Source: Elusimicrobiota bacterium (GTDB taxonomy: Bacteria > Elusimicrobiota > Elusimicrobia > O2-12-FULL-59-9). From it: a stretch of DNA of 17,075 nt. The position numbers and the translations under genes were made by a program. The stretch is taken from NCBI GenBank assembly GCA_016206405.1, contig JACQRQ010000269.1, positions 1-17,075 on the forward strand, read 5' to 3'. Below the pieces are notes generated by a model, which ran no database searches, was not told the DNA's origin, and saw only the letters and a list, made by a program, of their open reading frames with translations. Shown here piece after piece: positions 1-15,339 of this stretch (its first letter is position 1; each line of letters opens with the position of its first letter).

Positions 1-52
1 ATGCCAACCCCGTCACGGATTCGCAAACGCTGATCCAAGGCGTTTGTCAACT

Positions 53-96
53 TTGTCAAACCAGGTACGGATTCTTGTCAAACCAGGTACGGATTC
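53..96. repeat. Perfect 22-bp direct tandem repeat, two copies (TTGTCAAACCAGGTACGGATTC), with partial copies upstream
   Basis: Read directly: 53-74 and 75-96 are identical. The half-motif TTGTCAA recurs at 44-50 and ACGGATTC at 15-22. It lies in non-coding sequence; the only ORF across it (44-244) opens at TTG and has no protein-like features. Confidence 0.9.
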
Positions 97-317
97 ACAT
101 TCTGAATTTTCTCAACCGCCGGATGCGCCGGACAAAGATTTAAACATTTCAAGCCTAATATCTGCCAAGCCTTATAAGTATATCAGACAACCGTTAAATT
201 TCAATTATAAAGATGCGGCCGAGAAGGGCACGGTTCGCCTATGAATAGAAAAATTCCAAAGACACGTAGTAGGCGGAGATTTATCAGATGATCGGGACGT
301 TCACCTTAAATTCTCAA

Positions 318-531
318 GGGGGATGCCGGCGGGTTTTGTTTATTAGGAGAAAAACTTAAAAGATGCGGCGGGTGGCACGGGGATGCCTGGAGAAAATCCT
401 CCCGGAAGACCGCTCCGACATGCAGCGAGTCTGAGGGAGGGAGGGGCGCTCTCGGAGGGCGCAGGGTGTCCGGTGGACACCCGCCTTGCGCGCCCGCGAC
501 TGCGGGCAGGCCCCGAAGGGGCCCCGTTTTT
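318..531 (+). ncRNA. Candidate structured small RNA or 3' UTR element; 5' boundary uncertain, family not recognised
   Basis: GC-rich segment where all six frames give only Arg/Pro/Gly-rich overlapping ORFs. Perfect 8-bp hairpin at 464-482 (GGGTGTCC-GGT-GGACACCC), extended by GGGCGCA 457-463 pairing with TGCGC(G)CCC 487-495. The segment ends in a plus-strand intrinsic terminator at 503-531. No plus-strand CDS follows. Confidence 0.3.
503..531 (+). terminator. Rho-independent terminator (plus strand)
   Basis: CGG[gca]GGCCCC-GAA-GGGGCCCCG followed directly by TTTTT (527-531). The T-run sits only on the plus-strand side, so the hairpin is directional. Confidence 0.6.
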
Positions 532-668
532 CGGAACATGCACCTCCGGTGCGCCCAGTGCCGGGAGCTCTGCGACTGGCCGGAAGGCGCCCCGGGACAG
601 GCCCTGACGCTTTAAGAAATTGGAGATACCTTAAACCCGGCGGCGTCACCCGTATGAAGGAAGTCAGG

Positions 669-3317
669 TCAACGTCGGAAGAGGCGTTTGAGGGACTTTA
701 ACCAGGGGCGCAGTTGGGAGACGGCCCACACGGCGGCGAGGGCGGCGAGGAGGCCGGGCAGGCCGGAGCGCATCGCGGTGACTTCCAGGAAATTGGAGGC
801 GAAATGCGCGACGGCGGGCAGAAGCATCGCGCTGCCGGCGAAATAATAAAGCCCGGCGAAGAACACACCCATGGCCGTTCTTCCGATCAAGGAGCTCCAA
901 GTGAAGGAATAGCCCTCGAGCACTTTCCCGAAATAGGGCAGGTCGATGTCGAAATTATGCACCACCGCGAAAACCACCGAGGAGAGGACCAGCGCCCAAA
1001 AGAGGGGCCTTTGCCAGAACTTGCCTTTAGGATCGAAGGCGGCGCGCGCCAAAATTTTCTTGAGGATTTGCAGGCCCGCGAAAGCGCCGCCGAACACCGC
1101 CAGCGCGGCCGGGTAACTTGCGGGGTTATTGATGAAGGTCAGGCCGTAAAGCAGCGCCGTCGTGCCGAGGATGGTGGGGATGCCCTTCTTGGGGTTGTCC
1201 AGAATGCTTTTGAAAAAGCCTTTGCGGAAGATGAACTCCTCGAGGGAGGCCGCCAGAAAAAGAACCGGGACCAGAAGGCCGGAGGGGGCCGCCAGCAGCT
1301 TTAAGAGCGATTGGGGCATCGTTTCCGCGCGCCCCTCAAAGAAATTCGGTATTTGGTAGGTGGCGATGCCGGCGAAGAAGGCGACGGCCCCGAAGAAAAG
1401 CCCGGCGGCGAGCAGAGGCAAAAGCCTTTTGGGGGTTTTGGAAGGCTTGTTCCACCACTTTCCCACCGCCTTCAAATGCCGGATCTGCCCTTGGAGCGCT
1501 TTTTTCCCGGCGGCGAAGATTTTCTGAAATATGTTTTGGCGAGGCGCCATCGAGGTTTCCCCGCCGCCGCCGACGAGGCGGCTGATCAGCTTTCCGGCGC
1601 CGTAAAGTCCGGCCCAGGCCGCCAGACCTATCCAGGCGTGGCCGGGGATGAAATCCTTAAGCGGGACCAACATGGAGGGATCGGCGGCATTGAGAACCGC
1701 CAGAAGCCATACCGAATAAAGCTGGTAGATTTGGAAAGCGCCGTCGAGAAGAAGGGGCGCCTGAAGGCTGCGGGTGCGGGCATAAAGGTAGATCAGGACC
1801 GCTTGAGTCGCCAGAAGCGACAGTGTGGCGAAAGGAGAGGCCCCGGGGCTCAGGAGCCAGTAGTTGAAGCCCATGGACGCGACCGCCGCCAGCCACGGCG
1901 CCGCCCGCGAACCGGGTTTTAGACGGTTGACGAGAACCTGCGTTCCCTGGAAGACGACCGCCAGAGACAGGAAATTTTGGACCAGGGACTGGGCGAGGCT
2001 GGGAAAGAAAAAGGTTCGCCAGGGAGAGTTCAGCAGATTGTCGATGACCGGGGAAGCGATGAAATCAGCCGCCGCCGCCGTCGCCGCCGCGGCCGAGGCC
2101 GCCGGGGAGAAGATGTGGGAAAATGAAAAGGACTGGAAAGGCACGGAAAGAAGGCTTCCCGCCAACAGGGAGGCCAGGAGGATGGGGGACCAAACCACGG
2201 CGGTGCGCAGCGCGCTGCGGAGCATGTTTTGAAAAGCGGTCCAATTTCCGTTTCCGGCGCGGGCCTCAAATCCCATGTGCTCTTGGAGCGTCCGCACGGC
2301 ATTTTGTCCGGTTGCGTAAACCAAGGGCGCGAGCTTCTCCACCCATTTCAAAAATCGGCCCGGCGTCTTGTTTGCGGGCGGCGGTTGCGCCAGGTTGCGC
2401 GGGTTTTTTAAGAACTGGTTCGCGGCGAATAAAACGATTCCCGCGATGAGGAGCCCCGGCACCAGGGAGTCCACGGCGGCAGGCAGCGTATGACCGATAG
2501 CCGGCAGCAATTTGGCCGCGGCCGGCAGGCTGGCGATCCCGAAGGCCGCGGTGCCGGCGACGCCGGCCCAAACGGAGATTTTATGGCTCCGGCTGGCGGC
2601 GGCCGGTTGTGAAATTTCAGGGACGCTCGGCTCGGCGCCACCCTGCGCAGAGCTGCGGGTGCCTTGAAGCGCCAGAGGCGCGGCGGAATTCTTCTGGGGA
2701 TGGATTGACGCGGCCGGGACCTGCTTTAATCCGTCGGCCGGACCCGCCGCGACCGCGAAGTCTTCGGCGCCGGCTTTTTGCCGCATTTGGGACAAAAGGG
2801 CTTTGGCGATTTCTTCGGCCAGTTTCGGAGATTTCCCGGAGGTTGGCGAAAAAGAGGGGTCGTGGCGGCGGACGATATCGGCCAGAATCCCGGAGGCGTG
2901 CCGGCGCGTGGCGGCGTTCTTGCTCTTTAACGCCTGAAGAACCGCCTCGATATCCTCCACGGCTCCGCTGCGGCCGAGCACGGTGAGGGCGCCCATTTGC
3001 GCGGCTCGCCACTCGGCCGCGCTCAGGCGCGCGTCCCGGGCGCGCGCGAGGAGAATTTCCCGGGTCCACTCCAGCAACGAGCCGTTTTTGAGGATGCGCG
3101 GTATTTGGATGGAGGCCGGGTCTTGCCGGACGGAGGCCAACTGCCTCAAGAAGGAGCGGCGGACGCGGGCGGAGGCGCGGGAGGGGGAATTGGAGGCGCC
3201 GCGTAAATGGCCTCGAGAACCGAGGGCGCCGGCCCAGGCTTGATAAAAGGCCGGCGCGGGGGCGTTGAGCCACAGGCTCAAAGACAGAACAAGTCCAACG
3301 CCGCGCTTTAGCTGCAT
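669..3317 (-). CDS. Large polytopic membrane protein: signal peptide, HEAT-like repeat exodomain, many TM segments and a C-terminal CPBP (CAAX/Abi-type) intramembrane glutamic protease domain
   Basis: All three CPBP motifs are intact in the last ~190 aa: LEEFIFRKG (EExxxR, about 1231-1252), FAVVHNF (FxxxH) and HFASNF (HxxxN). Start trimmed from 3491 to the ATG at 3315-3317, giving MQLKRGVGLVLSLSLWLNAPAPA, a typical signal peptide. The 58-aa upstream extension runs antisense into dus. HEAT/PBS-like repeat: GALTVLGRSGAVEDIEAVLQALKSKNAATRRHASGILADI. Confidence 0.85.
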   Translation of the reverse strand: MQLKRGVGLVLSLSLWLNAPAPAFYQAWAGALGSRGHLRGASNSPSRASARVRRSFLRQLASVRQDPASIQIPRILKNGSLLEWTREILLARARDARLSAAEWRAAQMGALTVLGRSGAVEDIEAVLQALKSKNAATRRHASGILADIVRRHDPSFSPTSGKSPKLAEEIAKALLSQMRQKAGAEDFAVAAGPADGLKQVPAASIHPQKNSAAPLALQGTRSSAQGGAEPSVPEISQPAAASRSHKISVWAGVAGTAAFGIASLPAAAKLLPAIGHTLPAAVDSLVPGLLIAGIVLFAANQFLKNPRNLAQPPPANKTPGRFLKWVEKLAPLVYATGQNAVRTLQEHMGFEARAGNGNWTAFQNMLRSALRTAVVWSPILLASLLAGSLLSVPFQSFSFSHIFSPAASAAAATAAAADFIASPVIDNLLNSPWRTFFFPSLAQSLVQNFLSLAVVFQGTQVLVNRLKPGSRAAPWLAAVASMGFNYWLLSPGASPFATLSLLATQAVLIYLYARTRSLQAPLLLDGAFQIYQLYSVWLLAVLNAADPSMLVPLKDFIPGHAWIGLAAWAGLYGAGKLISRLVGGGGETSMAPRQNIFQKIFAAGKKALQGQIRHLKAVGKWWNKPSKTPKRLLPLLAAGLFFGAVAFFAGIATYQIPNFFEGRAETMPQSLLKLLAAPSGLLVPVLFLAASLEEFIFRKGFFKSILDNPKKGIPTILGTTALLYGLTFINNPASYPAALAVFGGAFAGLQILKKILARAAFDPKGKFWQRPLFWALVLSSVVFAVVHNFDIDLPYFGKVLEGYSFTWSSLIGRTAMGVFFAGLYYFAGSAMLLPAVAHFASNFLEVTAMRSGLPGLLAALAAVWAVSQLRPWLKSLKRLFRR

Positions 3318-3323
3318 TGACTC

Positions 3324-3352
3324 ATTATAGCTGGAGGTCCTAAGGCTGTCTT
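3324..3352 (-). promoter_or_regulatory. Candidate sigma70-type promoter for the CPBP gene, positioned for a leaderless or near-leaderless transcript
   Basis: Minus-strand reading: AAGACA (3352-3347), 17-nt spacer, TATAAT (3329-3324), GAGTCA, then ATG (3317). No Shine-Dalgarno between the -10 box and the ATG. Confidence 0.35.
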
Positions 3353-3447
3353 GGGCCTTACGGCCTACGGAAGGACGGGTAAAGGACCTATCCGGTATTA
3401 GGCCCGGCGACCTACTTAAAAGCGATATAATGTAAAGGTAAATTAAT

Positions 3448-4422
3448 ATGCCTCTGCGCCTCGGCAATCTGGTCTTAAACGACTTGGTCATTCAATCCCC
3501 TCTGGCGGGTTTCTCGGACCTCGCTTTTCGGCTGATAGGCCGGGAAAAGGGCATGGAGTTCGCCTTTTTGGAGATGGTCTCCGCCAATGCGCTGGTGTTG
3601 AAAAACAAAAGAACGCTGGATTACCTCAAGACGGTCCCGGAGGACCGCCCGCTGGGAGCTCAATTGGTCGGCTGCGAGCCTGAAATCATGGGCGAAGCGG
3701 CGGCCGCCATCGAAGACATGCGCTTTGACTTGCTGGATTTAAATCTGGGCTGCCCCGTGAGAAAAGTGACGGCTCTGGGGGCCGGCGCCGCTTTGCTGAC
3801 CGAGCCCGCGAAGGCCGAGGCCGTTTTTAAAAGCGTGATGAAATCCGTCAAAAATATTCCGGTCACCGTCAAAATGCGCAAGGGCTATGCCGACGAGTCG
3901 GGCGACGAGGCGGTCGAGATGGCCAAGATCGCCGAAGCTTGCGGCATATCGGCCGTGGCCATTCACGGCCGCACGCGCGCCGCCGGCTACGGCTCAAGGT
4001 CGGACCCCGGAGTCATCGCCCGGGCCAAAGCGGCGGTCAAAATCCCGGTCATCGGAAACGGCGACGTGATGTCGGGGCAGGACGCTGTGCGTTTGCGGGA
4101 GCAGACCGGCTGCGACGCGGTGATGCTGGGCCGCGCGGGCATGGGAAATCCGTGGATATACGAAGAAGTGGCCCGAGCGTTGAGGGGAGAAAACGGCCGG
4201 AGCGCCCCCCCCGGCGCGGACGAAATCCGCGAAACCCTATTGAGGCATTTCGATCTCAAGCTCCGGCATCAGGCGGAACGCGTCGCCGTGCTGGAGATGC
4301 GCCAAATCGCGGGCCAGTACTCGAAAGGGCTTCCCGACGCGGCCGGTTTCCGCAGCCGGATGCACGGCGTCAACGGCGTCGCGGAAGCGCGCCGGGTCAT
4401 CCAAGAGTTTTTCCGGAGCTGA
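3448..4422 (+). CDS. dusB: tRNA-dihydrouridine synthase (Dus family, DusB/NifR3-like)
   Basis: 324 aa. N-terminus LVIQSPLAGFSDLAFRLI, catalytic-Cys loop DLNLGCPVRKV and HGRTRAAGY are the classic TIM-barrel Dus signatures. ATG at 3448 is preceded by AAAGG at 3434-3438. Confidence 0.9.
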   Translation: MPLRLGNLVLNDLVIQSPLAGFSDLAFRLIGREKGMEFAFLEMVSANALVLKNKRTLDYLKTVPEDRPLGAQLVGCEPEIMGEAAAAIEDMRFDLLDLNLGCPVRKVTALGAGAALLTEPAKAEAVFKSVMKSVKNIPVTVKMRKGYADESGDEAVEMAKIAEACGISAVAIHGRTRAAGYGSRSDPGVIARAKAAVKIPVIGNGDVMSGQDAVRLREQTGCDAVMLGRAGMGNPWIYEEVARALRGENGRSAPPGADEIRETLLRHFDLKLRHQAERVAVLEMRQIAGQYSKGLPDAAGFRSRMHGVNGVAEARRVIQEFFRS

Positions 4423-4469
4423 GAAGCGCCGGATTTACAAGCCTGGGGGCTTTTGATAGACTTGCCGAC

Positions 4470-6608
4470 ATGAAGCTTGCCCACCGTTTCTTCCTCATTA
4501 TCGTCGCCGCTTCGCTGCTTCCCTTGGGCCTGACCAGCCTATGGCTGTTTCAGTTCCAAAAAATGGCTCAGCGCAATTCGCTCGAGCTTCACCTCGGGGT
4601 GGCCCAGTTCAGCTCGGAGGCGATCACCAAGTACATCCAGGGACTCAACCGGCGCGTCGGCTTCATGCTGGACCTCGAGCGGGCTCGGGCCATCGGCCGC
4701 AACCAGCAGATGCTGGTTATTCAGCAGGCCATGGCCACCAACGCCGATTTCGCTTTTCTCTCCGTTGTTGATTCCCAGGGTCGGGAGATCGTCAAGGAGT
4801 ACAACGCCGACATCTACAAACAGGCGCAGGACTATCAGGCCCGGTCCGGGGAGGAGGTTTTCAAGAAAGCCCAAAAGGACCGGCGCGTTTCTTTGGGAGA
4901 GATCGTCATGCTCGAGGGCCGGCCGATGATGCCGCTGGTTTATCCGTTCCACTACGGCGGCTACGGTTATTTGATGGTGGACCTCCATTCCGTATTCCAA
5001 AACTTGACCGGCAGAACCCTGGGCACGACCGGGCACGTCATCGTCATCAACAAGTCGGGCCGCCCCTTGGCGCCTTTCGCCGACACGGTGAGCCGCTTGC
5101 CGGTGGACTCTCTCAAGGAGCTCATCGCGCAGGACGATGTGGGCATCTCGGACTATATCCCTTCCGAGGAGGGGGTTATGGTGGGCGCTTTCCAGCGCGT
5201 GACGGACATGCCCTGGGCGGTGTTGACCCTGCAATCGCGGGAAGACGCCTTTCTGGCCGCCGAGCAATTGACGTGGACCATCATCGGCTGGATAGGCCTG
5301 GTCGCTTTGGTGGCTTTTGGGGTCGCTTACGTGACGGCGCTGCGCGTGGCCGGACCCATCGAGCGCTTGAACGCCGGCGCCCTGCGCGTCGCCCAAAAGG
5401 ACCTCAGTAAGCCGGTTCCGGAAGTTGGCTGGGGGGAGCTCAAAGCTCTGGCGCGAAGCTTCAATCAAATGATGCAGGAGCTGCAGGCTTTCCACGACCT
5501 TCAAGTCGGGAAGATCGTGGAGGAAAAGACGCGGGTGGAGACTTTGGTCTACAGCATCCCCGATGGGATCGTCATGGCCGATTTTTCGGGACAGGTGCTC
5601 TACGTCAATAAGCCCGCGCTCAGCATGCTGGGCTACCAGGCTCCGGCGGCCGAGCCCGGATCGCTGGATATCTACAATGTCGTTCAGGAGGCCCGCATCC
5701 GCCCCATGCTGCAAAGGGTCATGCGGCGCGCGGCCCGCAAGGATCAGATGGAGATATCCATCAACGACAAGGCTTCCGGCCGGACCCGCCATTTCGCCGC
5801 CGCGGTGTCCACCGTCGCCGCCGCCGGCAAGGCCGATTTGGGCATTTTGCTGCTGATGCGCGACGTGAGCGTCGAGCGCGAGTTGGAGGAGATGAAGGAG
5901 CAGTTCTTCCATTCCTTGGCGCACGATCTGCGCGCGCCCATCACGGCCGTGCAAGGCTACGTGCGTCTGCTGGAAAAAAGCCTTCCGGCCGGGGAGAGGG
6001 AAAAGCGCTACTTTAGGTCCGTCTACGCGGGCACGCGCCAAGTTCTTGCTTTGGTCAGCGACATCCTGGATTCGGCCAAGATGAAGGAGGGCAAGCTGCC
6101 TTTGGAATTGAGCCGCATCGAGGTTGTGCCCATGCTGCGCAAAATCCAGGAGCTTTTCACGCCCGTCGCCTCCCAGAAAGGGATCCGCCTGGCGCTGGAA
6201 GGCGTCGAGAAAATTCCGGGCGTTTTGGAGGGCGACGCGCGCCTTATCGAAAGGGTGGTCACCAACCTGGTCAGCAACGCCCTAAAATTCTGCGGCTCCG
6301 GAGCGCGCGTCGCCTTGGAGTTCGAATCCATCCACCCTCAGCGCGTAGAATTGGCGGTGGCCGACACCGGCCCGGGAATTCCCCCGGACAAGCTCCAGGC
6401 CGTTTTTGAGCGATTCAAGCAGTTGGAATCCGGAGAGAAGCGCTCCGGCTTCGGCCTGGGGCTTTCCATCTGCAAGATGGTGGTTGAAATGCACGGGGGG
6501 AAGATATGGGTCGAATCGGTCCTGGGAAAGGGCAGCCGGTTCCGCATCCTTTTACCCCGAAAAGTGCCGGCCAAAACCGGCGAAACCGCTATTCCCCCTG
6601 CCGGATGA
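4470..6608 (+). CDS. Sensor histidine kinase (TM, ~240-aa extracytoplasmic sensor, TM, HAMP, PAS, HisKA, HATPase_c); no cognate response regulator in the window
   Basis: Start trimmed from 3939 to the ATG at 4470 (MKLAHRFFLIIVAASLLPLGL, TM1). The upstream 177 codons overlap dus out of frame and are Arg/Pro-rich. HAMP: PIERLNAGALRVAQKDLS...ELKALARSFNQMMQEL. PAS: VYSIPDGIVMADFSGQVLYVNKPALSMLGY. H-box: FFHSLAHDLRAPIT. N-box: VVTNLVSNALKF. G-boxes: DTGPGIP and GFGLGLSI. No obvious SD before 4470. Confidence 0.88.
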   Translation: MKLAHRFFLIIVAASLLPLGLTSLWLFQFQKMAQRNSLELHLGVAQFSSEAITKYIQGLNRRVGFMLDLERARAIGRNQQMLVIQQAMATNADFAFLSVVDSQGREIVKEYNADIYKQAQDYQARSGEEVFKKAQKDRRVSLGEIVMLEGRPMMPLVYPFHYGGYGYLMVDLHSVFQNLTGRTLGTTGHVIVINKSGRPLAPFADTVSRLPVDSLKELIAQDDVGISDYIPSEEGVMVGAFQRVTDMPWAVLTLQSREDAFLAAEQLTWTIIGWIGLVALVAFGVAYVTALRVAGPIERLNAGALRVAQKDLSKPVPEVGWGELKALARSFNQMMQELQAFHDLQVGKIVEEKTRVETLVYSIPDGIVMADFSGQVLYVNKPALSMLGYQAPAAEPGSLDIYNVVQEARIRPMLQRVMRRAARKDQMEISINDKASGRTRHFAAAVSTVAAAGKADLGILLLMRDVSVERELEEMKEQFFHSLAHDLRAPITAVQGYVRLLEKSLPAGEREKRYFRSVYAGTRQVLALVSDILDSAKMKEGKLPLELSRIEVVPMLRKIQELFTPVASQKGIRLALEGVEKIPGVLEGDARLIERVVTNLVSNALKFCGSGARVALEFESIHPQRVELAVADTGPGIPPDKLQAVFERFKQLESGEKRSGFGLGLSICKMVVEMHGGKIWVESVLGKGSRFRILLPRKVPAKTGETAIPPAG

Positions 6609-7221
6609 TGTTGACTTCGATCCGCCGGTTGGCGGCTCGATTCTCCTCGGTGTCGTTGGGCGCGCGCGGCTGATATTCCCCGTAGCCGATGGCGGCCAAG
6701 CGCTGGGGCGGCACTCCTTCCTGGATCAAGAGCTTTGTGACGCTGAAAGCGCGCGCGGCGGAGAGTTCCCAATTTGTCTTGTAAGGCGAGTTCGGCCCCA
6801 TCGGCTGGGCGTCGGTGTGGCCCTCCACCTGGATTTGATTGGGCAGCTCCTTGAGGGAGGCGGCCAGAGCCTGCAAGTGGGGCAGGGAGGCGGTCTTGAG
6901 ATCCGCGCTTCCGGAGTTGAACAGAACGGGCGCTGAAAAGGTGATGCGAAGACGGTTTCGATTGATATCCACCCGGGCGATCTGCTGAATTCCGTATTTG
7001 GAAAAAATCTCCTTCATCTTGTCGGATTTGCTTCCGAAGGCTTCCTCGAGAGCTTGGGCGCTCAGTTGATGCGTCATGTCCTTGTTGGTGGAGTTGAACA
7101 CGAACATGATGAGAAAGAAGATCATCAGGTAGCTCATCATGTCGCCGTAGGTGATGGCCCACAGGGCTCCGCGGTTGAGCTGATTTTCCAACTCGTCTTC
7201 CCGTTCCTGAAATATCGCCAT
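6589..7221 (-). CDS. motB: MotB-type stator subunit (single TM with conserved Asp plus OmpA-like peptidoglycan-binding domain)
   Basis: 210 aa. LWAITYGDMMSYLMIFFLIMFVF carries the channel Asp (D27, codon 7141-7143). OmpA-like C-terminus: GHTDAQP...NWELSAARA...NRRIEV. ATG at 7221 lies 8 nt after the motA stop, with AAGGA overlapping that stop. Confidence 0.88.
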   Translation of the reverse strand: MAIFQEREDELENQLNRGALWAITYGDMMSYLMIFFLIMFVFNSTNKDMTHQLSAQALEEAFGSKSDKMKEIFSKYGIQQIARVDINRNRLRITFSAPVLFNSGSADLKTASLPHLQALAASLKELPNQIQVEGHTDAQPMGPNSPYKTNWELSAARAFSVTKLLIQEGVPPQRLAAIGYGEYQPRAPNDTEENRAANRRIEVNIIRQGE

Positions 7222-7229
7222 AATCGTCC

Positions 7230-8030
7230 TTAAGTCTGCTCCATCGCCGGGACTTCCATCGTCGGGCGAGCTTCCGGCAGGGTCTTTTTCTCCGCGTAGG
7301 CCAGAAGGTGCATTTCAATGAGATAGGGGGGCTTGGATTCCATGATGTCGAGCACCCCCTCCACCAGGATTTCCAGCACCAAAGTTTCCTGAATCGCCCG
7401 GGTCCGGATTTTTCCGGCCACGGGGACGAACAGCAGATTGGCGAGAGAGATGCCGTAGAAAGCCGTGCTGATGGCCAAGGCCATGGCCGCGCCCACCTTG
7501 CTGGGGTCGGAAATCGTCCGCAGAACTTGGATGATTCCGAGCAAAGTCCCCAGCAGCCCGAACATCGGCGCCAAAATACCCATCGTCCTGAAAAGGTTGG
7601 CGTCCTCCATCTGGTTGAAGCGCTTCTGGCGGATGTCCTCGCCCAGGATGCGCTTGGCCTCCTTGACCTCCCCCGAGGTGATGGCGATGGTGATGGCGCG
7701 GTTGAGTTGGCCTTCGGCGAATTCGCGCCCCTCATCCTGGAGCTCGATGAGCCCGCCCCCCGAGCGCGCCTTGGTCGCCAGCCGCACCACCTCCGCGATG
7801 GTCTCCGGGACGGAGGGAAAGCGCGTCGCCACGAACAAGGACATGAGGTTCTTGAAGGCTTTGACCAAATCGTGAACGGAGCTGTTGATGAAAGTCGCGG
7901 CCAGAGTGCCGCCGAAAACGATGATGATGCCGTGGGTGTTTAAAAACGTGGTTCCGGCGCCGGCTTGGATGACGCCCCAAACAAGGACGCCGATGCCTCC
8001 GGCAAAACCGATAAGCGTCGCGAAGTCCAT
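7230..8030 (-). CDS. motA: MotA/PomA-type stator proton-channel subunit (4 TM)
   Basis: The track start at 8036 is TTG; the ATG at 8028-8030 (MDFATLIGFAGG) lies 2 nt after the upstream TGA (8033-8035). Two N-terminal TMs, a cytoplasmic loop (LATKARSGGGLIELQDEGREF), then TM3 with GILAPMFGLLGT and TM4 with LANLLFVPVAGK, both prolines in the expected places. Confidence 0.88.
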   Translation of the reverse strand: MDFATLIGFAGGIGVLVWGVIQAGAGTTFLNTHGIIIVFGGTLAATFINSSVHDLVKAFKNLMSLFVATRFPSVPETIAEVVRLATKARSGGGLIELQDEGREFAEGQLNRAITIAITSGEVKEAKRILGEDIRQKRFNQMEDANLFRTMGILAPMFGLLGTLLGIIQVLRTISDPSKVGAAMALAISTAFYGISLANLLFVPVAGKIRTRAIQETLVLEILVEGVLDIMESKPPYLIEMHLLAYAEKKTLPEARPTMEVPAMEQT

Positions 8031-8032
8031 GC

Positions 8033-9538
8033 TCAAGCTCCCAAGGTGATTCTGCCGGACTGCTCCATGCCGCGCACGACCTGCATGAAGCGCTTGCGCT
8101 CCGCTTCCTGCTGCGCGGCCGAGCTCTGCCGGTTGAGCTCATCGGCCAACACGCGGTGCAAGGCTTCCGGCAAGGCCGCCATGGCCGTCGTCTGAAGGTC
8201 CTTGGTCAGCCCCTTGAAAACGGTTCCGAGAGCCACGCGCTGGCGATAGGCTTCCCATAAAACGCTCTGCAGGGTGTTCTTGTCGAGGCCGATAATTTTT
8301 TCCACCGTCAGCATCCGGCGCTGAATGTCTTCGACCAGCTCGGGGTGCTCGATGCGCATTTCTTCCATCATGGCCCCTTGTTTTTCGGCCGCCTGGGTGT
8401 CCATGATCAACAGGATCTGGTCCACGCCGCCGACGATGGATTTCACCTGGTTTTCCAGCTGCCGGCTCAGGTCCACGACGGCCTCCGGCGAGATGGTCCT
8501 GGGGGAGGAGAGCAAAATGAAGACCTCCCGCTGCATTTCCGGGCTCAGGGAATCGAGAAGCTTGGAGGAGATATTGGCCGGCAGATAGGCGGCGACCGTG
8601 GCCAGGATTTGGGCGTCCGCTTCCGCCAGCACCAAGGACAGCTTGGAAATATTGTCGGCGTTGACGAAGGCGAAGGGCGAGGCGGCGCCGTCTTTTTGCT
8701 CCAAGAGCCCCGCCGCGCCGCCGCCCAGCGTCGGGCCGCCGCCGGCGCCCGCTTGCGGAAGCTGGCGCATCTCGTTGAAGCCCTGCTGAATTTGAAGAGG
8801 GGGGAGATTTCCGCCGATGCGGCCTTCCACGCTGAAGTTTTCCGCCGATTGAGCGAAGCGGTTGAGAAAGGTCCTGACCGGGCCGAACAAAAAGGCGGTC
8901 AGCATCAAAAGGCCGAAGACCCAGAACACGAACGGATTTAAATTATTCTTCCAGTACAAGAATTGCTCCCAGGAATCCCGGCGGAAAGCGATTCTTTCGA
9001 TGGCCAGCCCATCGCCCCGGGCGGCCTCCAGGCCGATCAACATCGGCAGGACTTTTTTCAAGTCCTCGATTTTCTCATCGGTGACGGCTTTGGGGACGAT
9101 GATGCGCACGCTCATGCTTTTGACGTAGTCGGAGGGGATCTTGACGGTCTGGGCGATCTGCTGCGTGAGCGGTTGAACGCCGGCCTTGACCCCGCCGGCT
9201 TCTTGGCGGAACTCCTGGGGCAGGAAGGTTTGGGTGATTCCCGGCATGGCTTGATCGGCGCCCGGGTTCTTCTCGTCCGTTTTTCCGGTTTTGCCCTCGA
9301 GCGGCTCCACGACGCTCCTGGTCTCCTGGGTCATGTTGAAATCCACGGTGATCTTCACCCAAATCAGAAAATCCTCGTTGCCCAAAAGCTTCTGCGTCAC
9401 CCCGCGAACTTTCTCCGTCAAGGCGTTTTCCAAAAGAATGCGCTCCTCGACGCCCAGCGTGGCCCCCAGCTCCCGGCACAGCGCCGGAAGAAGCGACAGC
9501 CCGGCCAGAAAAAGCATCCGCCTCGTTTTTGCTTTCAT
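8033..9538 (-). CDS. Chimeric FliF-like / FliG-like membrane protein: N-terminal signal/anchor, reduced FliF-type periplasmic region, one TM, Gly/Gln-rich linker, then FliG middle and C-terminal domains
   Basis: FliG_C-like: ELVEDIQRRMLTVEKIIGLDKNTLQSVLWEAYRQRVALGTVFKGLTKDLQ...LPEALHRVLADELNRQ...AERKRFMQVVRGMEQSGRITL, which matches the remembered FliG pattern (MFxFEDL..LDDRxIQxxLRE..LAxALKG..EL....A..xLxEDL....ee.Q..Il......L...GeI). FliG_M-like: YLPANISSKLLDSLSPEMQREVFILLSSPRTISPEAVVDL. FliF C-terminal-like: MSVRIIVPK...IEDLKKVLPMLIGLEAARGDGLAIERIAF (RGD codons 9011-9019), followed by a TM (PFVFWVFGLLMLTAFLFGPV, about 8876-8938). The track start at 9556 is TTG; the ATG at 9538 (MKAKTRRMLFLAGL) is preceded by GGGAG. 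Confidence 0.75.
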   Translation of the reverse strand: MKAKTRRMLFLAGLSLLPALCRELGATLGVEERILLENALTEKVRGVTQKLLGNEDFLIWVKITVDFNMTQETRSVVEPLEGKTGKTDEKNPGADQAMPGITQTFLPQEFRQEAGGVKAGVQPLTQQIAQTVKIPSDYVKSMSVRIIVPKAVTDEKIEDLKKVLPMLIGLEAARGDGLAIERIAFRRDSWEQFLYWKNNLNPFVFWVFGLLMLTAFLFGPVRTFLNRFAQSAENFSVEGRIGGNLPPLQIQQGFNEMRQLPQAGAGGGPTLGGGAAGLLEQKDGAASPFAFVNADNISKLSLVLAEADAQILATVAAYLPANISSKLLDSLSPEMQREVFILLSSPRTISPEAVVDLSRQLENQVKSIVGGVDQILLIMDTQAAEKQGAMMEEMRIEHPELVEDIQRRMLTVEKIIGLDKNTLQSVLWEAYRQRVALGTVFKGLTKDLQTTAMAALPEALHRVLADELNRQSSAAQQEAERKRFMQVVRGMEQSGRITLGA

Positions 9539-9609
9539 GGGATTATGCGCTCCCAACGGAATTCTTCAACGGCTTTGAGGGCCGTCGCAGGAGCTCGGCG
9601 CACACTATA

Positions 9610-9638
9610 AGGTTAAGCGGATTGTGCGAAATTGTCAA
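9610..9638 (-). promoter_or_regulatory. Candidate sigma70 promoter for the fliF/G-like, motA, motB operon
   Basis: Minus-strand reading: TTGACA (9638-9633), 17-nt spacer, TAACCT (9615-9610), with TATAGT immediately downstream. About 70 nt upstream of the ATG at 9538. Confidence 0.35.
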
Positions 9639-9720
9639 TACCAAGGGGAAAAGTGGAGTCCGCAAGCGTTTTTTGGGTAGAATGTGGGCGGCTTTGAAAG
9701 CCCCCGGCAGGAGACACCCG

Positions 9721-11085
9721 ATGAGCGGAAAAATTTCTCTAAAAGAGCTTGCGGCGCAAATCCGCAAAGACGAAATCGACACCGTGCTGGCCGTTTTCCC
9801 GGACATGCAGGGGCGCTGGATGGGCAAGCGGGTCACGGGGAGATATTTTTTGGACAACGTCATGGAGAGCGGGCTGCATGCCTGCGCCTATCTCTTGGCG
9901 ACCGACGTGGACATGGAGCCCCTTCCGGGCTTTGAGTTCGCGAGCTGGCAGACGGGCTACCAGGATTTCCACATGCTCCCGGATTGGGGAACCTTGAGGA
10001 TGATTCCATGGCTGGAAAAGACGGCGCTGGTGGTCTGCGACGCGGCCGCGGAAAACGGCGCGCCCGTTTCCATAGCGCCGCGCAGCATCTTAAAGCGGCA
10101 AATCGAGCGCGCGGCGCAAAAGGGGCTGCGGCTTAAAGTGGCCTCCGAGCTTGAATTTTTCTTGTTTAAAGAGACGTATGAAACCGCCCAACAGAAAAAT
10201 TACCACGGCTTGGAGCCCTTCGGCCATTACATCGAGGACTATCACGTCCTGCAGGGCAGCAAAGAGGAATTCCTGATGCGGGCCATCCGCACGCAGATGG
10301 AGGCGGCCGGGGTTCCGGTGGAGTTTTCCAAGGGCGAATGGGGAAAGGGCCAGCATGAGATCAACCTCCGCTGCGCCGATCCCCTGGAGATGGCCGACCG
10401 TCATTCGATCTACAAGACGGGCGTCAAAGAAATCGCGATGTCCAAAGGGCTCGCCGTGACCTTCATGGCCAAATACGACGGCCGGCAAGCCGGCTCCAGT
10501 TTTCATCTGCACGCGAGCCTGTGGGACGCTTCCGGGAAAAAGGCCCTTTTCTGGAATGCGGCCAAAAAATCCCCTTCGCCCTTGTTTTCGCATTTTCTGG
10601 CCGGGCAGATGGCTTTGGCGAGGGAGTTTTCCTATTTCTTCGCGCCCCACGTCAACTCCTACAAACGCTACCAAAGCGGCTCCTTTGCGCCCACGCGCAT
10701 CGCCTGGGGGCGGGACAACCGCACTTGCGGCTTTCGCATCGTCGGGGAGGAAGAAAACTATCGGATTGAAAACAGGATTCCGGGGGCGGACGCCAATCCG
10801 TATTTAGCCTTCGCCGCCGCCATCGCGGCGGGCCTCTACGGCCTGGAACGTAAGCTGCCCTTGGCAGGGGAAACGCGCGGCAACGCCTACCTGGCCGAAG
10901 GGGTTGCCGACGTGCCGAAATCGCTGGCGGAGGCGGTGGAGCTGCTGCGCCAAAGCTCGCGGGCGCGCGAGGCCTTCGGCCCGGAGGTCGTCGAGCATTA
11001 CCTGCGCTCCGCCGGCTTGGAGCAGGCCTCTTTCGACGCCGCCGTCACCTGCTGGGAGCGGGAGAAGTTCTTTGAAAGGATATAG
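9721..11085 (+). CDS. Glutamine synthetase family ligase, GlnA-like / gamma-glutamyl-amine synthetase type (PuuA/GlnA3-like)
   Basis: Start trimmed from 9529 to the ATG at 9721, with GGAGA 6 nt upstream. GS catalytic-domain signatures: KGEWGKGQHEINLRCADPLEMAD, GSSFHLHASLW, NSYKRY...FAP..IAWGRDNRTCGFRI and ENRIPGADANPYLAFAAAIAAGLYG. Confidence 0.85.
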   Translation: MSGKISLKELAAQIRKDEIDTVLAVFPDMQGRWMGKRVTGRYFLDNVMESGLHACAYLLATDVDMEPLPGFEFASWQTGYQDFHMLPDWGTLRMIPWLEKTALVVCDAAAENGAPVSIAPRSILKRQIERAAQKGLRLKVASELEFFLFKETYETAQQKNYHGLEPFGHYIEDYHVLQGSKEEFLMRAIRTQMEAAGVPVEFSKGEWGKGQHEINLRCADPLEMADRHSIYKTGVKEIAMSKGLAVTFMAKYDGRQAGSSFHLHASLWDASGKKALFWNAAKKSPSPLFSHFLAGQMALAREFSYFFAPHVNSYKRYQSGSFAPTRIAWGRDNRTCGFRIVGEEENYRIENRIPGADANPYLAFAAAIAAGLYGLERKLPLAGETRGNAYLAEGVADVPKSLAEAVELLRQSSRAREAFGPEVVEHYLRSAGLEQASFDAAVTCWEREKFFERI

Positions 11086-11088
11086 ACT

Positions 11089-11856
11089 ATGCGCTTAAAA
11101 AACAAGGTTTGCCTGATCACGGGGGTCGCCAGCGGCATGGGGCGCGCGGCGGCCCGAAGGTTCGCCCAAGAGGGGGCCAAGGTCGTTGGAACGGACGTCC
11201 AGGCGCCGGCGGGCGAGGCGGCGATGCAAGAAGTGAAAGCGCAGGGCGGCGACGGCATTTTTATCGCGGGAGACATCTCCCGGCCCGAAGACGCCCGGGA
11301 GATGGTCCGGCGCGGCGTCGAGCGCTACGGGCGATTGGACGTCCTCTACAATAACGCCGGCATTTTTCCGTCCGACGACTGCTCGGTGATTAACACGGAA
11401 CCGGAAGTCTGGGACCTCGTCTACCGCGTGAACTTGAAGGGGATGTACCTGATGTGCCGCTACGGCATACCCGAAATCATTCGCGGCGGCGGAGGCTCGG
11501 TCATCAACATCGCCTCTTTCGTGGCGTTGGTGGGCTGCTCGGTGCCGCAGGACGCCTACACGTCGTCTAAAGGCGCGGTCATCGCGCTGAGCAAATCCCT
11601 GGCGGTCCAGTTCGGCCCCAAGGGCGTGCGCTGCAACGCCGTCTGCCCCGGGCCGGTGGAAACGCCGCTTCTGATGCAGTGGCTTTTGAGCAACCCCGCC
11701 GAGAAGGCCAAGCGCATCAACCGCATCCCGATGGGGCGCTTGGGCAAGCCCGAGGAGATCGTCGCCTTGGCCGTTTATCTGGCCTCGGATGAATCCGCCT
11801 GGACCAACGGCGCGGCCATCGTGGTTGACGGCGGCATCACCGCCAATTATTTTTAA
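11089..11856 (+). CDS. Short-chain dehydrogenase/reductase (classical SDR)
   Basis: Contains TGVASGMGRA (TGxxxGxG), NNAG, YTSSKGAV (YxxxK) and PGPVETP. The ATG lies 3 nt after the upstream TAG, with AAAGGA at 11075-11080. Confidence 0.9.
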   Translation: MRLKNKVCLITGVASGMGRAAARRFAQEGAKVVGTDVQAPAGEAAMQEVKAQGGDGIFIAGDISRPEDAREMVRRGVERYGRLDVLYNNAGIFPSDDCSVINTEPEVWDLVYRVNLKGMYLMCRYGIPEIIRGGGGSVINIASFVALVGCSVPQDAYTSSKGAVIALSKSLAVQFGPKGVRCNAVCPGPVETPLLMQWLLSNPAEKAKRINRIPMGRLGKPEEIVALAVYLASDESAWTNGAAIVVDGGITANYF

Positions 11857-11924
11857 GCGGCGGCCTGGCGCCGTTTTGCATAGGGTCCGCCAGTTATTGT
11901 TTGCCAGGCCCTTATTGTGATAGC

Positions 11925-13433
11925 ATGAAACGCGTCATGTCCCCCCAAGCTTCGAAAAAAATCAAGCGCGCCCCCGCCTCAGCTCCGGTCAAATCCCTTT
12001 GGCATTTATGGATCGGGGGAAAGGCCGTCTCGAGCCTGGCGGGCAAGCGCTTCGTCGTGCATAATCCGGCCAACGGGCAAAAGTTGACCGAGGTCGCGCA
12101 GGGCGACGCGGCGGACGTCGACGCGGCCGTGTCGGCCGCCCGCCGAGCTTTCGACGGCCCTTGGGCCAAGTTTGGTCCCAGAGACAGGGCGCGGGCGTTG
12201 TTTAAATTCGCGCAGGCCGTGCGGGATCACCGCGAAGAGCTGGCGCTGCTTGAAACCTACAACACCGGCAAGCCCATCGGCGATTCGCGGGGCGAGGTCG
12301 CCGTCGCGGCCGACTGCTTTGAATATTACGCCGGGGCCGTGACCAAATATTTCGGCAGCACCATACCCGTTTCGGCCACCGGCCTGGATTTTACTCTGCG
12401 CCAGCCCATGGGGGTTTGCGGACTGGTCGTGCCTTGGAATTTTCCCATCATGATCACGGCCTGGAAACTGGCCCCGGCCCTGGCCTGCGGCAACACGGCC
12501 GTGATAAAGCCGGCCAGCTATACCCCGCTGACGGCGCTCCGGCTCGCGCAGCTCTGCGAGGAGGCCGGAATCCCGGAAGGGGTCGTCAACGTCGTGCCGG
12601 GTCCGGGCGACGTGGCCGGGCAGGCTCTCGCCGCGCATCCCGGGGTCGCCAAGATTTCTTTTACCGGGGAGACCGCCACCGGGGAGCGCGTCCTGCGCGC
12701 CGCGGCCGCGACGATTAAGCGGGTTTCCCTGGAGCTGGGCGGGAAATCCCCCAACATCGTCTTCGCCGACTGCGATTTGGAGCGCTGCGTCGAGAAATCC
12801 GTTTTTTCGGTGTTCGGCAACGCGGGGCAGGACTGCTGCGCGCGCAGCCGCGCCCTGGTTGAAAAAAGCGCGGTGGAGGAGTTTGTCGGCCGTTTCGCGG
12901 AGCGCACCCGTAAAATCGTGGTGGGCGATCCGTTGGACGAGGCCACGCAAGTGGGCCCCATGATTTCGCGCCAGCAGCGCGAGCGCGTGCAGGGATACGT
13001 CGCGTTGGGGCAGAAGGAGGGCGCCCGGCTGGTGTGCGGAGGCGGCCTGCCTGAAGACGTCCGGTGGAAGGCGGGACACTTTCTGATGCCCGCCGTTTTG
13101 AGCGAAGCCCGGCCCGGGATGCGCGTGGCGCAAGAGGAGATTTTCGGCCCGGTGCTCTGCGTCCTGGCTTTTGACGGCGAAGAGGAGGCCGTCCGCCTGG
13201 CCAACGACACGCCCTACGGACTTTCCGGCTCCATCTGGACCCGCGACTTATCCAAGGCTCTGCGCGTCGCGCGCCGGGTTGAAAGCGGAAACTTAAGCGT
13301 CAACTCGGCCACCAGCGTTTATTTGGAAGCGCCTTTCGGGGGATTTAAGCGCAGCGGCGTGGGCCGCGAGCTCGGCATGGGAGCCATGGACCTCTACAGC
13401 GAAGTGAAGAACGTTTTCGTGGAGCACGGTTGA
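11925..13433 (+). CDS. NAD(P)-dependent aldehyde dehydrogenase
   Basis: Contains VVPWNFP, FTGETATGE, the catalytic Glu in LELGGKSP, the catalytic Cys in GQDCCARSR, EEIFGPV, and PFGGFKRSGVGRE at the C-terminus. The track start at 11901 is TTG. In-frame ATGs are at 11925 and 11937, neither with a clear SD, so the start is uncertain by about 12 codons. Confidence 0.88.
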   Translation: MKRVMSPQASKKIKRAPASAPVKSLWHLWIGGKAVSSLAGKRFVVHNPANGQKLTEVAQGDAADVDAAVSAARRAFDGPWAKFGPRDRARALFKFAQAVRDHREELALLETYNTGKPIGDSRGEVAVAADCFEYYAGAVTKYFGSTIPVSATGLDFTLRQPMGVCGLVVPWNFPIMITAWKLAPALACGNTAVIKPASYTPLTALRLAQLCEEAGIPEGVVNVVPGPGDVAGQALAAHPGVAKISFTGETATGERVLRAAAATIKRVSLELGGKSPNIVFADCDLERCVEKSVFSVFGNAGQDCCARSRALVEKSAVEEFVGRFAERTRKIVVGDPLDEATQVGPMISRQQRERVQGYVALGQKEGARLVCGGGLPEDVRWKAGHFLMPAVLSEARPGMRVAQEEIFGPVLCVLAFDGEEEAVRLANDTPYGLSGSIWTRDLSKALRVARRVESGNLSVNSATSVYLEAPFGGFKRSGVGRELGMGAMDLYSEVKNVFVEHG

Positions 13434-13447
13434 GGCGAGGAGCCTAA

Positions 13448-14728
13448 ATGACCATACATGAACTGATCAGCTTGGCCGGGACCTTCATCCTGATCGGCAT
13501 CGGCTACGCGCTCTGCGCAAACAAGGCCCGCATTCGTTGGAAGACCATAGCGTGGGGCTGCGCGCTGCAGTTTATCTTCGCCGTTCTGGTGCTCAAAACC
13601 CCGCCGGGCCAATGGTTTTTTTCGCTCATGAACGACGTCATCACCCGGCTGCTGTCGTTCCAGGAAGAGGGCGGCAAGTTCGTGTTCAACGCTTTGGCCA
13701 TACCGCCCGGCGCGGAAGGCTCCATGGGTTTTTTCTTCGCCTTCCAGGTTCTGACCACCATCATCTTTTTCTCCTCCCTGATGTCGGTGCTTTACTACCT
13801 GGGCGTCATGCAGTGGATCGTGCTGTTTTTCGCCAAAATCATGCGCCGGTTTATGGGGACTTCCGGCGCGGAAACCTTATCCGCCTCGGCCAATATTTTC
13901 GTCGGGCAGACCGAGGCGCCTCTGCTCATCAAGCCCTACGTGGCCGAGATGACCGAATCGGAGCTGATGTGCGTCATGGTGGGGGGCATGGCGACCGTGG
14001 CCGGCGGAGTGATGGCGGCCTACGTCGGCATGCTCAAGACTTACTTTCCGGACATTGCCGGGCATTTATTGGCGGCCAGCGTCATGAGCGCGCCCGCGGC
14101 CTTGGTGATGGCCAAAATCATTATCCCGGAAACCGGCCATCCCAAAACCATGGGGACGGTCAAGCTTGAATATAAAGACCCATCCATCAACGTCATCGAG
14201 GCCGCGGCCAACGGCGCCGCCACCGGCCTTCAACTGGCTTTAAACGTCGGCACGATGCTCATCGCCTTCATGTCGCTTCTGGCCCTGGCGAATTTCATGA
14301 TCAGCTCGGCTCTGGGACATTTGGGATTTGCGGGCATGACTCTGGAAAAGCTTTTGGGCTACGCCTTCATGCCCCTGGCGTGGATCATGGGCACTCCCTG
14401 GAAGGACTGCATGATCGTGGGTCAATTCATGGGCGAAAAAACCGTCTTAAACGAATTCGTGGCCTACCTCCACATGGCTCAATACGCGGCCGCCCATCCG
14501 GGGGAACTATCTCACCGGGCTTTCGTCATTTCCACCTACGCGCTTTGCGGATTTTCCAACTTCCTTTCCATCGGCATCCAGATCGGCGGCATCGGGGCAT
14601 TAGGACGGGACGACGAAGAGCGGCAGAGACTGCGGCAAAGCCTGGCCCGTCTAGGAATTAAAGCCCTCATCGGCGGCAGCCTGGCCTCCTTCATGACTGC
14701 CACCATCGCCGGCATTCTCGTGCCGTAG
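13448..14728 (+). CDS. nupC: NupC-family concentrative nucleoside (CNT) transporter
   Basis: 426-aa polytopic protein. N-terminus IRWKTIAWGCALQFIFAVLVLKT, central NIFVGQTEAPLLIKPY, and C-terminus YALCGFSNFLSIGIQIGGIGAL are characteristic CNT/NupC blocks. The ATG lies 14 nt after the ALDH stop, with GAGGAG upstream. Confidence 0.85.
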   Translation: MTIHELISLAGTFILIGIGYALCANKARIRWKTIAWGCALQFIFAVLVLKTPPGQWFFSLMNDVITRLLSFQEEGGKFVFNALAIPPGAEGSMGFFFAFQVLTTIIFFSSLMSVLYYLGVMQWIVLFFAKIMRRFMGTSGAETLSASANIFVGQTEAPLLIKPYVAEMTESELMCVMVGGMATVAGGVMAAYVGMLKTYFPDIAGHLLAASVMSAPAALVMAKIIIPETGHPKTMGTVKLEYKDPSINVIEAAANGAATGLQLALNVGTMLIAFMSLLALANFMISSALGHLGFAGMTLEKLLGYAFMPLAWIMGTPWKDCMIVGQFMGEKTVLNEFVAYLHMAQYAAAHPGELSHRAFVISTYALCGFSNFLSIGIQIGGIGALGRDDEERQRLRQSLARLGIKALIGGSLASFMTATIAGILVP

Positions 14729-14763
14729 TCCAACCATTTAAATATTCTGGAAGGGGAGCGGGT

Positions 14764-15272: not shown

Positions 15273-15310
15273 TTTCCAAAGTAGGTCATGACGATGCTTA
15301 TGTGCATGGC

Positions 15311-15339
15311 TTGATATTAACTTATAGACTAAAAGTCAA
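15311..15339 (-). promoter_or_regulatory. Candidate sigma70 promoter for the cupin/DUF2905 operon
   Basis: Minus-strand reading: TTGACT (15339-15334), 17-nt spacer, TATCAA (15316-15311). It sits in an AT-rich intergenic stretch about 40 nt upstream of the ATG at 15272. Confidence 0.3.

Follow-up and report, generated by a model that had tools for sequence, protein, structure and literature searches.

A FliF/FliG fusion encoded with MotA and MotB in Elusimicrobiota: a putative stand-alone rotor–stator module beside a sensor kinase

What is the torque surface of FliG doing on a membrane anchor, directly followed by stator genes and with no other flagellar gene in view? This question was raised by a stretch of 17,075 nucleotides (nt) from an Elusimicrobia metagenome-assembled genome (MAG; assembly GCA_016206405.1, contig JACQRQ010000269.1, positions 1 to 17,075), which is referred to as the window. 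The source organism was an uncultured groundwater bacterium. The window encodes a FliF/FliG fusion protein, hereafter the rotor gene or the fusion, which is followed on the minus strand by motA and motB and has a sensor histidine kinase gene next to it. To our knowledge, the only role described for FliG is that of the rotor surface on which MotA acts in flagella. The module was interpreted as a flagellum-derived, stand-alone rotor–stator device that would be coupled to two-component signalling via the adjacent kinase, a reading to which a probability of roughly 0.55 was assigned.

The original prediction, made from the letters of the window, had described three minus-strand genes packed as one unit. 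This packing was borne out exactly (Table 1), the fusion being separated from motA by 2 nt (TGA-gc-ATG) and motA from motB by 8 nt (TAA-ggacgatt-ATG). The Shine-Dalgarno-like motifs GGGAG and AGGA preceded the motA and motB starts. Of the predicted span 6589–9638, the beginning was correct, and the end lay about 100 nt past the start codon of the fusion in non-coding 5′ untranslated or promoter DNA. An alternative TTG start further upstream at 9556 would yield a fusion of 507 amino acids (aa).

The fusion comprised a signal peptide or transmembrane (TM) segment, the third ring-building motif (RBM3) and collar of FliF, a TM helix, a flexible linker and the middle and C domains of FliG, in this order. 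All Pfam matches given here for the fusion, MotA and MotB exceeded the gathering scores. YscJ_FliF_C (PF08345) was found at residues 50–185 with the whole model covered, an E value of 1.6e-5 and a score of 25.8 bits, the cut-off being 23.8. FliG_M (PF14841, E 7.4e-10) matched residues 301–369 and FliG_C (PF01706, E 3e-12) residues 393–499, both inside the region of about 296–505 in which they had been expected. Together with the TM2 helix, these matches confirmed that the FliG middle and C domains are covalently attached to a membrane anchor. FliG_N (PF14842) was not matched in the fusion, and the FliG model TIGR00207 aligned over model positions 109–328 only, with 75.3 bits against a cut-off of 226.7. 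RBM1/RBM2 (PF01514, YscJ_FliF) had no match either, and TIGR00206 reached 15.8 bits against a cut-off of 129.75. The chimera proposed in the original prediction was real as a fusion, and its FliF portion was confined to RBM3, collar and TM2. The protein is FliF without RBM1-2 and the C-terminal FliG-binding helices, joined to FliG without its N domain. The parts normally holding FliF and FliG together are precisely those replaced by a covalent tether. The tether stands where the FliF C-terminus and FliG_N would be.

Structural comparisons pointed to the same composition. In searches of the PDB, the family profile matched Salmonella FliF residues 239–513 (E 8.5e-13), Vibrio FliF (6.5e-12), Thermotoga maritima FliG-MC (1.8e-74) and SpoIIIAG (3.5e-5). 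An AlphaFold2 (AF2) monomer model built on a 134-sequence family alignment had a predicted local distance difference test (pLDDT) score of 83 and replaced an earlier four-sequence model with 53.6. In this model, a hydrophobic helix at the N-terminus preceded the periplasmic domain, and the latter showed the topology alpha-beta-[insertion 66–138]-beta-alpha-beta, which is the ring-building-motif fold, and the low-confidence insertion occupied the position of the FliF beta-collar. Foldseek retrieved FliG structures first (1lkv, 1e-8), followed by the FliF RBM3/collar rings 8z5v, 6sd1, 8ftf and 7cg7, with TM-scores to the target of 0.50–0.56 over about 180 columns. The fusion aligned to residues 3–222 of 1lkv, and pLDDT exceeded 94 across most of residues 290–490. 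The motifs LPG (99–100) and RGD (174–176) of the periplasmic domain were conserved in the family, and the Gly-Gly hinge at 370–371 was kept and almost invariant family-wide. N-termini in the family were mostly signal-peptide-like. A lipoprotein anchor was considered for the fusion and rejected, with Cys 21 being unconserved and the lipobox non-canonical. The FliM-binding motif EHPQ read EADA in the fusion and E-x-P-x in most of the family; EHPQ itself occurred in none of 134 members. It was discarded as a discriminator of flagellar and non-flagellar proteins because it was absent even in a member from a flagellar operon.

The stator genes were of the flagellar type, as predicted, and not of the ExbB/TolQ type. 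MotA had a MotA_ExbB match (E 1.5e-19) and aligned over its full length to PDB 9lu9 (3e-35) and to PomA 8brd (2.5e-32). Among the NCBIfam models, those for PomA/MotA fitted far better (PomA 2.9e-45) than TolQ and ExbB, which were marginal (3.6e-4 and 0.029). The PomA score of 154.6 lay below the equivalog cut-off of 341, and since the NCBIfam equivalog cut-offs were not reached, MotA is regarded as a divergent member of the flagellar-type stators. MotB carried the MotB_plug (PF13677, 1.4e-11) and an OmpA-like peptidoglycan anchor (PF00691, 8.4e-21), aligned over its full length to the MotB/PomB structures 6ysf and 8bri, and had its channel aspartate at D27 within YGDMMSYLM. Two other MotAB-related systems were tested and rejected. 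For Zorya defence, PADLOC related MotB to ZorB (3e-29), and neither a ZorA match for MotA nor matches to ZorC, ZorD or ZorE were found. Against ExbBD/TolQR stood the ranking of the MotA scores and the lack of an adjacent TonB- or TolA-like gene.

The contact surface between rotor and stator was compared with that of Escherichia coli, for which PMC7564593 gives the MotA–FliG charge pairs R90–D289 and E98–R281. Residues K442, D466 and E467 of the fusion are the counterparts of K264, D288 and D289 in E. coli FliG, and all three were invariant in the close clade, represented by an alignment of six members. In the stator, MotA R89 corresponds to E. coli R90, and both pore prolines were kept. Since both positions are conserved, the R90–D289 pair appears to be kept on both partners (MotA R89, FliG D466/E467). 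The second pair was displaced in both. The positions of R281 and R297 of the E. coli FliG ridge were A or T in the clade, with an invariant R462 three residues past the R281 position, and at the E. coli E98 site MotA had Q98, an adjacent D99 and an invariant E100. We infer that this pattern of one kept and one shifted pair fits a co-adapted interface. MotA had a short PomA-like cytoplasmic interface that matches the TGI4 class of PMC12505986, in which MotA/PomA form the FIT class.

The family to which the fusion belongs was revealed by an exhaustive profile search over 1.84 billion cluster representatives; a word-index homologue search with a 50-sequence alignment gave four proteins only. The number of matching cluster representatives was 2,790 below an E value of 1e-3, of which 730 lay below 1e-10 and 87 below 1e-30, and most of the top 150 aligned along the full profile length. 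Members had in common a signal peptide or TM segment, a periplasmic domain that measured about 170 aa and contained LPG and RGD, a TM helix with FLFGP and FliG_MC. BLAST clustering separated at least nine subfamilies. Named members came from MAGs of Elusimicrobiota, Elusimicrobiales, Endomicrobiales and Margulisiibacteriota, with Elusimicrobiota in the majority. One protein, P0190 (cluster of P0026), with 705 aa and C-terminal tetratricopeptide repeats (TPRs), bears the NCBI label "Thermoprotei archaeon" on a 4.9-kb contig; this label is probably a binning error and not an archaeal occurrence. Among GTDB species representatives, a close relative of the window fusion was present in only two genomes. 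The locus search, for which only the close-clade alignment was used, gave two genome loci and three metagenome loci. A protein of Elusimicrobia bacterium RIFCSPLOWO2_12_FULL_59_9 (L007) was 98% identical to the window fusion.

Gene context was sampled at thirteen distinct loci of the family, and the fusion was located beside or near motAB in 12 of them. The three-gene arrangement recurred in L002, L008, L012, L014, L017, L018 and others (Table 1). Intact open reading frames (ORFs) and the tight operon were retained at 42–51% identity (L001–L003, L008) and at 23–25% (L012, L017, L018). Together with the 730 cluster representatives in at least nine subfamilies, this argues that the module is under selection and not decaying. 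A relic of a lost flagellum without present function was therefore judged extremely unlikely. Remnants of flagella are known in other lineages, as discussed in PMC12199754, and would lend such a relic some plausibility. It is opposed by the intact ORFs with coupled starts and stops, by functional residues that are invariant across 42–51% identity, by an arrangement conserved down to 23%, and by a family that counts hundreds of cluster representatives, has expanded by paralogy and has acquired fusions to TPR and histidine kinase domains. Further genes were observed next to the stator genes of individual loci. A second, more divergent MotB-like gene with a weak plug match and OmpA followed motB at L012:13010–13699 and L014:13091–13852. 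At L017:3283–4962, a mechanosensitive channel of the MscS type with a cyclic-nucleotide-binding domain was located directly after motB, and the gene after the channel encoded a surface protein with fn3/LamG domains that exceeded 1,359 aa.

The histidine kinase had been taken as a mere flank of the module in the original prediction, and this view did not hold. Orthologous dCache kinases adjoined the module in the window, in L002 and L008, all convergent, and in L018, where the kinase was co-directional. The window kinase was 39% identical to that of L008. With the L018 kinase it shared 30% identity over the full length (E 1.6e-91), whereas the corresponding rotors shared merely 25%. Because full-length kinase orthologues adjoin rotors of only this similarity, the kinase has stayed beside the module despite deep divergence and changes in orientation. 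With the HAMP kinase after the module in L012, kinases adjoined the rotor–stator module in at least three subfamilies. In a further subfamily, three diverged metagenomic proteins of 836–847 aa (P0111, P0127, P0156) with a mutual identity of 40–44% combined kinase and rotor in single ORFs, in the order TM, coiled coil, HisKA, HATPase, TM, RBM3, TM and FliG_MC. Their kinase core had no sensor domain of its own. The P0111 junction contained no Trp or Gly able to mask a recoded stop codon, and its topology was self-consistent. On this comparative evidence, the dCache kinase is considered a conserved partner of the rotor–stator module and is proposed as its fourth component. In L008, genes for an OmpR-type response regulator, a CsgG/FlgO-like lipoprotein and a receiver-GGDEF protein were observed upstream and divergent of the rotor gene (1894–4485, minus strand). 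These are possible regulatory partners that are absent from the window.

A stand-alone device of this kind could work as follows. The fusion would oligomerise via RBM3 to a periplasmic or membrane ring and thereby place a ring of FliG_MC below the membrane. The peptidoglycan-anchored MotA5B2 complex would conduct H+ or Na+, and MotA pentamers would push the FliG_C ridge (K442, R462, D466, E467) so that the ring turns. With no export gate, rod or hook, this ring would have no axle. Its state would be tied to two-component signalling, the dCache kinase either controlling the device or reading it. The latter possibility can be taken further: the rotor–stator unit might be the input module of a two-component system, with ring speed, load or stator occupancy reporting ion-motive force or envelope mechanics to the kinase. 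The sensor-less kinase–rotor fusions P0111, P0127 and P0156 suggest a ring that feeds the kinase, and on these grounds such a sensing role is possible, if tentative. It is very unlikely that the device does not rotate at all and that membrane-tethered FliG_MC docks to or opens MotAB channels and so regulates ion flux or envelope anchoring without a rotor ring. The activation of flagellar stators requires contact with FliG, the fusion lacks a FliM-binding motif and an axle, and the collar-like insert is variable and of low complexity, all of which would suit a docking protein. However, the RBM3 ring-building fold and the RGD and LPG motifs are conserved family-wide, and the fusion has retained the Gly-Gly hinge as well as ARM_M and ARM_C, the domains that mediate FliG ring stacking.

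A second rotor–stator cluster was found in the same organism (RIFCSPLOWO2_12_FULL_59_9, GCA_001800185.1) at L015:1–14005 on contig MGUX01000020.1. It contained, in order, the tail end of a giant secreted protein whose C-terminal domain resembles FlgD_ig and type IX secretion system (T9SS) domains, a CheY-like regulator, a TPR protein, the FliG/TPR rotor fusion P0057 (641 aa), a 1196-aa protein of unknown function, FlbD, MotA, MotB and a 261-aa protein of unknown function. P0057 had a 641-aa counterpart in another Elusimicrobia MAG. With this second, larger cluster, the organism has more than one device of the kind. The cluster also raised the idea that the window module is a motor, or an alternative rotor–stator set, for a surface machine encoded elsewhere, with L015 as the candidate, which would serve gliding-like movement or the handling of giant adhesins and for which the kinase would be regulatory only. 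Similar clusters with proteins of 11,000–17,000 aa occurred in L004–L006 and L011, and TPR genes adjoined the small modules of L014 and L018, which fits this idea. It was nevertheless considered improbable, for the window clade never has giant-protein or TPR partners adjacent to the module. As an observation on these loci, proteins of 11,782 to 16,931 aa were encoded directly upstream of genes for TPR/outer-membrane-barrel (UPF0164/FadL-like) proteins and the FliG fusion with MotAB (L004:1–7811, L006:1–7753, L011:1–8090). Those giant proteins that were scanned (L006, L011) ended in a FlgD_ig-like domain. A 750–824-aa protein of unknown function was located between fusion and FlbD in L005 and L006 and after MotB in L011, where a PilZ protein was also nearby. 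The fusions of L004–L006 and L011 often had C-terminal TPRs.

Whether the module is stand-alone depends on the presence or absence of a flagellum. None of the sizeable ORFs of the window had a domain of FliM/N, the export gate, the rod, the hook or the filament. Flagellar genes were also absent from the called genes of L001–L003 (precomputed Pfam annotation), from the ten proteins scanned around the module in L008 and from the genes scanned around the module in L018. According to a preprint by Uzun et al. (bioRxiv 10.1101/2022.07.08.499144), most free-living Elusimicrobiota have no flagellar structural genes yet possess motAB, flbD and fliG, the role of which is called "enigmatic", and only a few genomes of the phylum hold a complete flagellar set. 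In an ISME J 2025 survey, 11% of non-motile species are reported to have rotor proteins in the absence of filament genes, and an alternative function is considered possible. The window organism presumably lacks a flagellum. The opposite reading, in which the fusion replaces separate fliF and fliG as the actual MS-ring and FliG of an ordinary, perhaps streamlined flagellum with its other genes elsewhere, was considered unlikely. It draws on the few Elusimicrobiota with full flagellar sets, on engineered FliF-FliG fusions that form rings (PDB 8z4d), on the flagellar type of the stator with its plug, and on L013, a locus of the Margulisiibacteriota MAG GCA_041650635.1. There, the 480-aa fusion P0049 headed a genuine flagellar operon in the fliF/fliG slot, FliP scored above the equivalog cut-off, and no separate fliF or fliG was seen. 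The locus may encode a natural flagellum in which a single trimmed protein serves as both MS-ring and FliG. Evidence in the other direction came from the flagellar-gene negatives of the window and its relatives, from the situation in most free-living Elusimicrobiota, and from the two divergent rotor paralogues in one genome, both in non-flagellar contexts. Furthermore, P0049 belongs to a subfamily other than the window clade, and RBM1-2, which house the export gate in FliF, are missing from the fusion. The description of the module as an orphan was thus supported by the absence of flagellar genes from the window and left unproven by the P0049 relative.

Several findings weigh against a stand-alone device that is coupled to the kinase. 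As P0049 heads a flagellar operon, the fused architecture can go together with a functional flagellum. For the MAG GCA_001800185.1, completeness is about 78%, and in the source genome the flagellar-gene negative covers the window. The kinase gene (plus strand, stop codon at 6606–6608) converges on motB (minus strand, stop codon at 6589–6591) with an overlap of 20 nt at 6589–6608, and because of this orientation it is not co-transcribed with the window module. No response regulator was present in the window. The AF2 model is that of a monomer with a low-confidence collar-like insertion, and ring formation and rotation of the fusion were inferred from homology only.

Table 1. Location and composition of the genes and protein regions in the window and of the rotor–stator loci in relatives. 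Window positions count from the first nucleotide of the stretch.
Feature	Location	Strand	Composition, size and basis
Rotor gene (FliF/FliG fusion)	8033..9538	−	ATG start, 501 aa; NCBI HY611_09860
Signal peptide or TM1 (aa 1–27)	9458..9538	−	Predicted; positive n-region, then hydrophobic stretch
Periplasmic RBM3-like domain (aa 28–185)	8984..9457	−	AF2 topology, Foldseek, conservation
TM2 (aa 203–221)	8876..8932	−	Family motif FLFGP; hydropathy, AF2 helix 202–237, conservation
Gly-rich disordered cytoplasmic tether (aa 238–283)	8690..8827	−	pLDDT <50; no FliG_N match
FliG middle (ARM_M) domain (aa 301–369)	8432..8638	−	PF14841; alignment to 1lkv
FliG C-terminal torque domain (aa 393–499)	8042..8362	−	PF01706; ridge residues K442, R462, D466, E467
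motA	7230..8030	−	PomA/MotA-type stator A subunit, 266 aa; PDB alignment, NCBIfam PomA
motB	6589..7221	−	Stator B subunit, 210 aa; PF13677, PF00691; PDB 6ysf, 8bri
Sensor histidine kinase	4470..6608	+	dCache-HAMP-PAS-HisKA-HATPase, 712 aa; Pfam
Operon divergent from rotor gene	9721–14728	+	GlnA-like (gamma-glutamyl-amine synthetase type), short-chain dehydrogenase/reductase (SDR), aldehyde dehydrogenase, Na+/nucleoside (CNT) transporter
940-aa membrane protein	669–3491	−	Sole recognisable domain: C-terminal Rce1-like (CPBP) intramembrane protease
Dus ORF	Window		Pfam scan of sizeable ORFs
AbiEii-like nucleotidyltransferase and AbiEi_2 antitoxin-like gene	15551–17075	−	NTP_transf_8, weak match (nucleotidyltransferase)
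L001, L003 (close clade, 42–51% identity)			Fusion, MotA, contig end
L002, L008 (close clade)			Fusion, MotA, MotB, convergent dCache kinase, like window
L018 (25% identity)			TPR/LysM, fusion, MotA, MotB, dCache kinase; co-directional
L012			Fusion, MotA, MotB, MotB2, HAMP kinase
L017			Fusion, MotA, MotB, MscS/cyclic nucleotide (cNMP) channel
L014			Fusion, MotA, MotB, MotB2, TPR; flanked by very large proteins
L009, L010			Fusion alone
L004–L006, L011			11,000–17,000-aa protein with FlgD_ig/T9SS-like tail, TPR/outer-membrane-barrel protein, fusion, (FlbD), MotA, MotB
L013 (Margulisiibacteriota MAG GCA_041650635.1)	L013:3096–14538		P0049 fusion, MotA, MotB(LysM), FliK, FlgD, FlgE/G, FliM, FliN, FliO, FliP, FliQ, FliR, FlhB, FlhA

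The remaining genes of the window are listed in Table 1. A nucleoside transporter, which is part of the divergent operon in the window, was also observed near the module in L002. The first approximately 800 residues of the 940-aa membrane protein were without any Pfam match. The AbiEii/AbiEi_2-like genes at the window edge are a probable type IV toxin–antitoxin or abortive-infection pair, the second gene of which extends past the window end. An Rfam scan of the window found zero RNA elements, and a promoter scan was at chance level, with one site versus 0.7 expected.

The present data would change the picture of FliG, in that a widespread, conserved family of trimmed FliF-FliG proteins occurs, together with stators of the flagellar type and a kinase, in organisms that reportedly have no flagella. 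If the stand-alone reading is true, the torque-generating core of the flagellum works as a free-standing module. With three or four genes, it would be a minimal system for the study of stator–rotor coupling without the approximately 40 other flagellar genes. If instead the ring informs the kinase, the module would be the first dedicated "rotary sensor" made from flagellar parts. The module may be a stripped-down descendant of the flagellum, given that a real flagellar operon contains one member of the family, or instead a view onto a stage that preceded type III secretion systems. This little-noticed family may show the use of "half a motor". The links to kinases, to proteins of the CheY-like and PilZ types and to giant surface proteins suggest that Elusimicrobiota have machines for motility or sensing that are as yet undescribed.

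The original prediction had stated that no system with this architecture is described. No paper describing a FliF/FliG fusion–MotAB architecture was found in the literature that could be searched, and to this extent the statement stands; motAB, flbD and fliG without flagella had, however, already been noted by Uzun et al. Their homologues, which were identified by KEGG annotation, are in all likelihood the same genes, and that preprint does not give domain architecture, FliF fusion, kinase link, gene-cluster types or mechanism. Among known systems, ExbBD-TonB, TolQR-TolA, GldLM, AglRQS and ZorAB share the concept of a 5:2 motor that is driven by ions, resides in the inner membrane and serves a non-flagellar task. 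ExbBD, TolQR, GldLM, AglRQS and ZorAB use no FliG-type rotor, whereas the window combines a MotA/PomA-like A subunit with a FliG partner. The rings of SpoIIIAG and SctJ/PrgK share with the fusion an RBM fold in which beta1 and beta2 are separated by an insertion, in accordance with the SpoIIIAG profile match. In contrast to the fusion, they form static components of channels for secretion or feeding and have neither a FliG domain nor a stator.

The closest likeness was to the flagellum itself. FliF and FliG with MotAB/PomAB share with the module a homologous RBM3/collar/TM2 region, FliG_M and FliG_C, the Gly-Gly hinge and the acidic ridge pair, and the stators share the four-helix, PomA-like torque interface of MotA and a MotB with channel Asp, plug and OmpA. 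Unlike the flagellar MS-ring and C-ring, the window module has one polypeptide instead of two and is devoid of RBM1-2, the FliF C-terminal helices, FliG_N and EHPQ. It also differs from the flagellum in being linked to a sensor kinase and in having no FliM/N, export apparatus, rod, hook or filament nearby. Engineered FliF-FliG fusions of Salmonella and Vibrio (PDB 8z4d; PMC11481574) have the covalent link in common with the natural fusion, and their MS- and S-rings still assemble. In these constructs, which act within the flagellum, both FliF and FliG are of full length (945 aa), whereas the natural fusion is trimmed to 501 aa.

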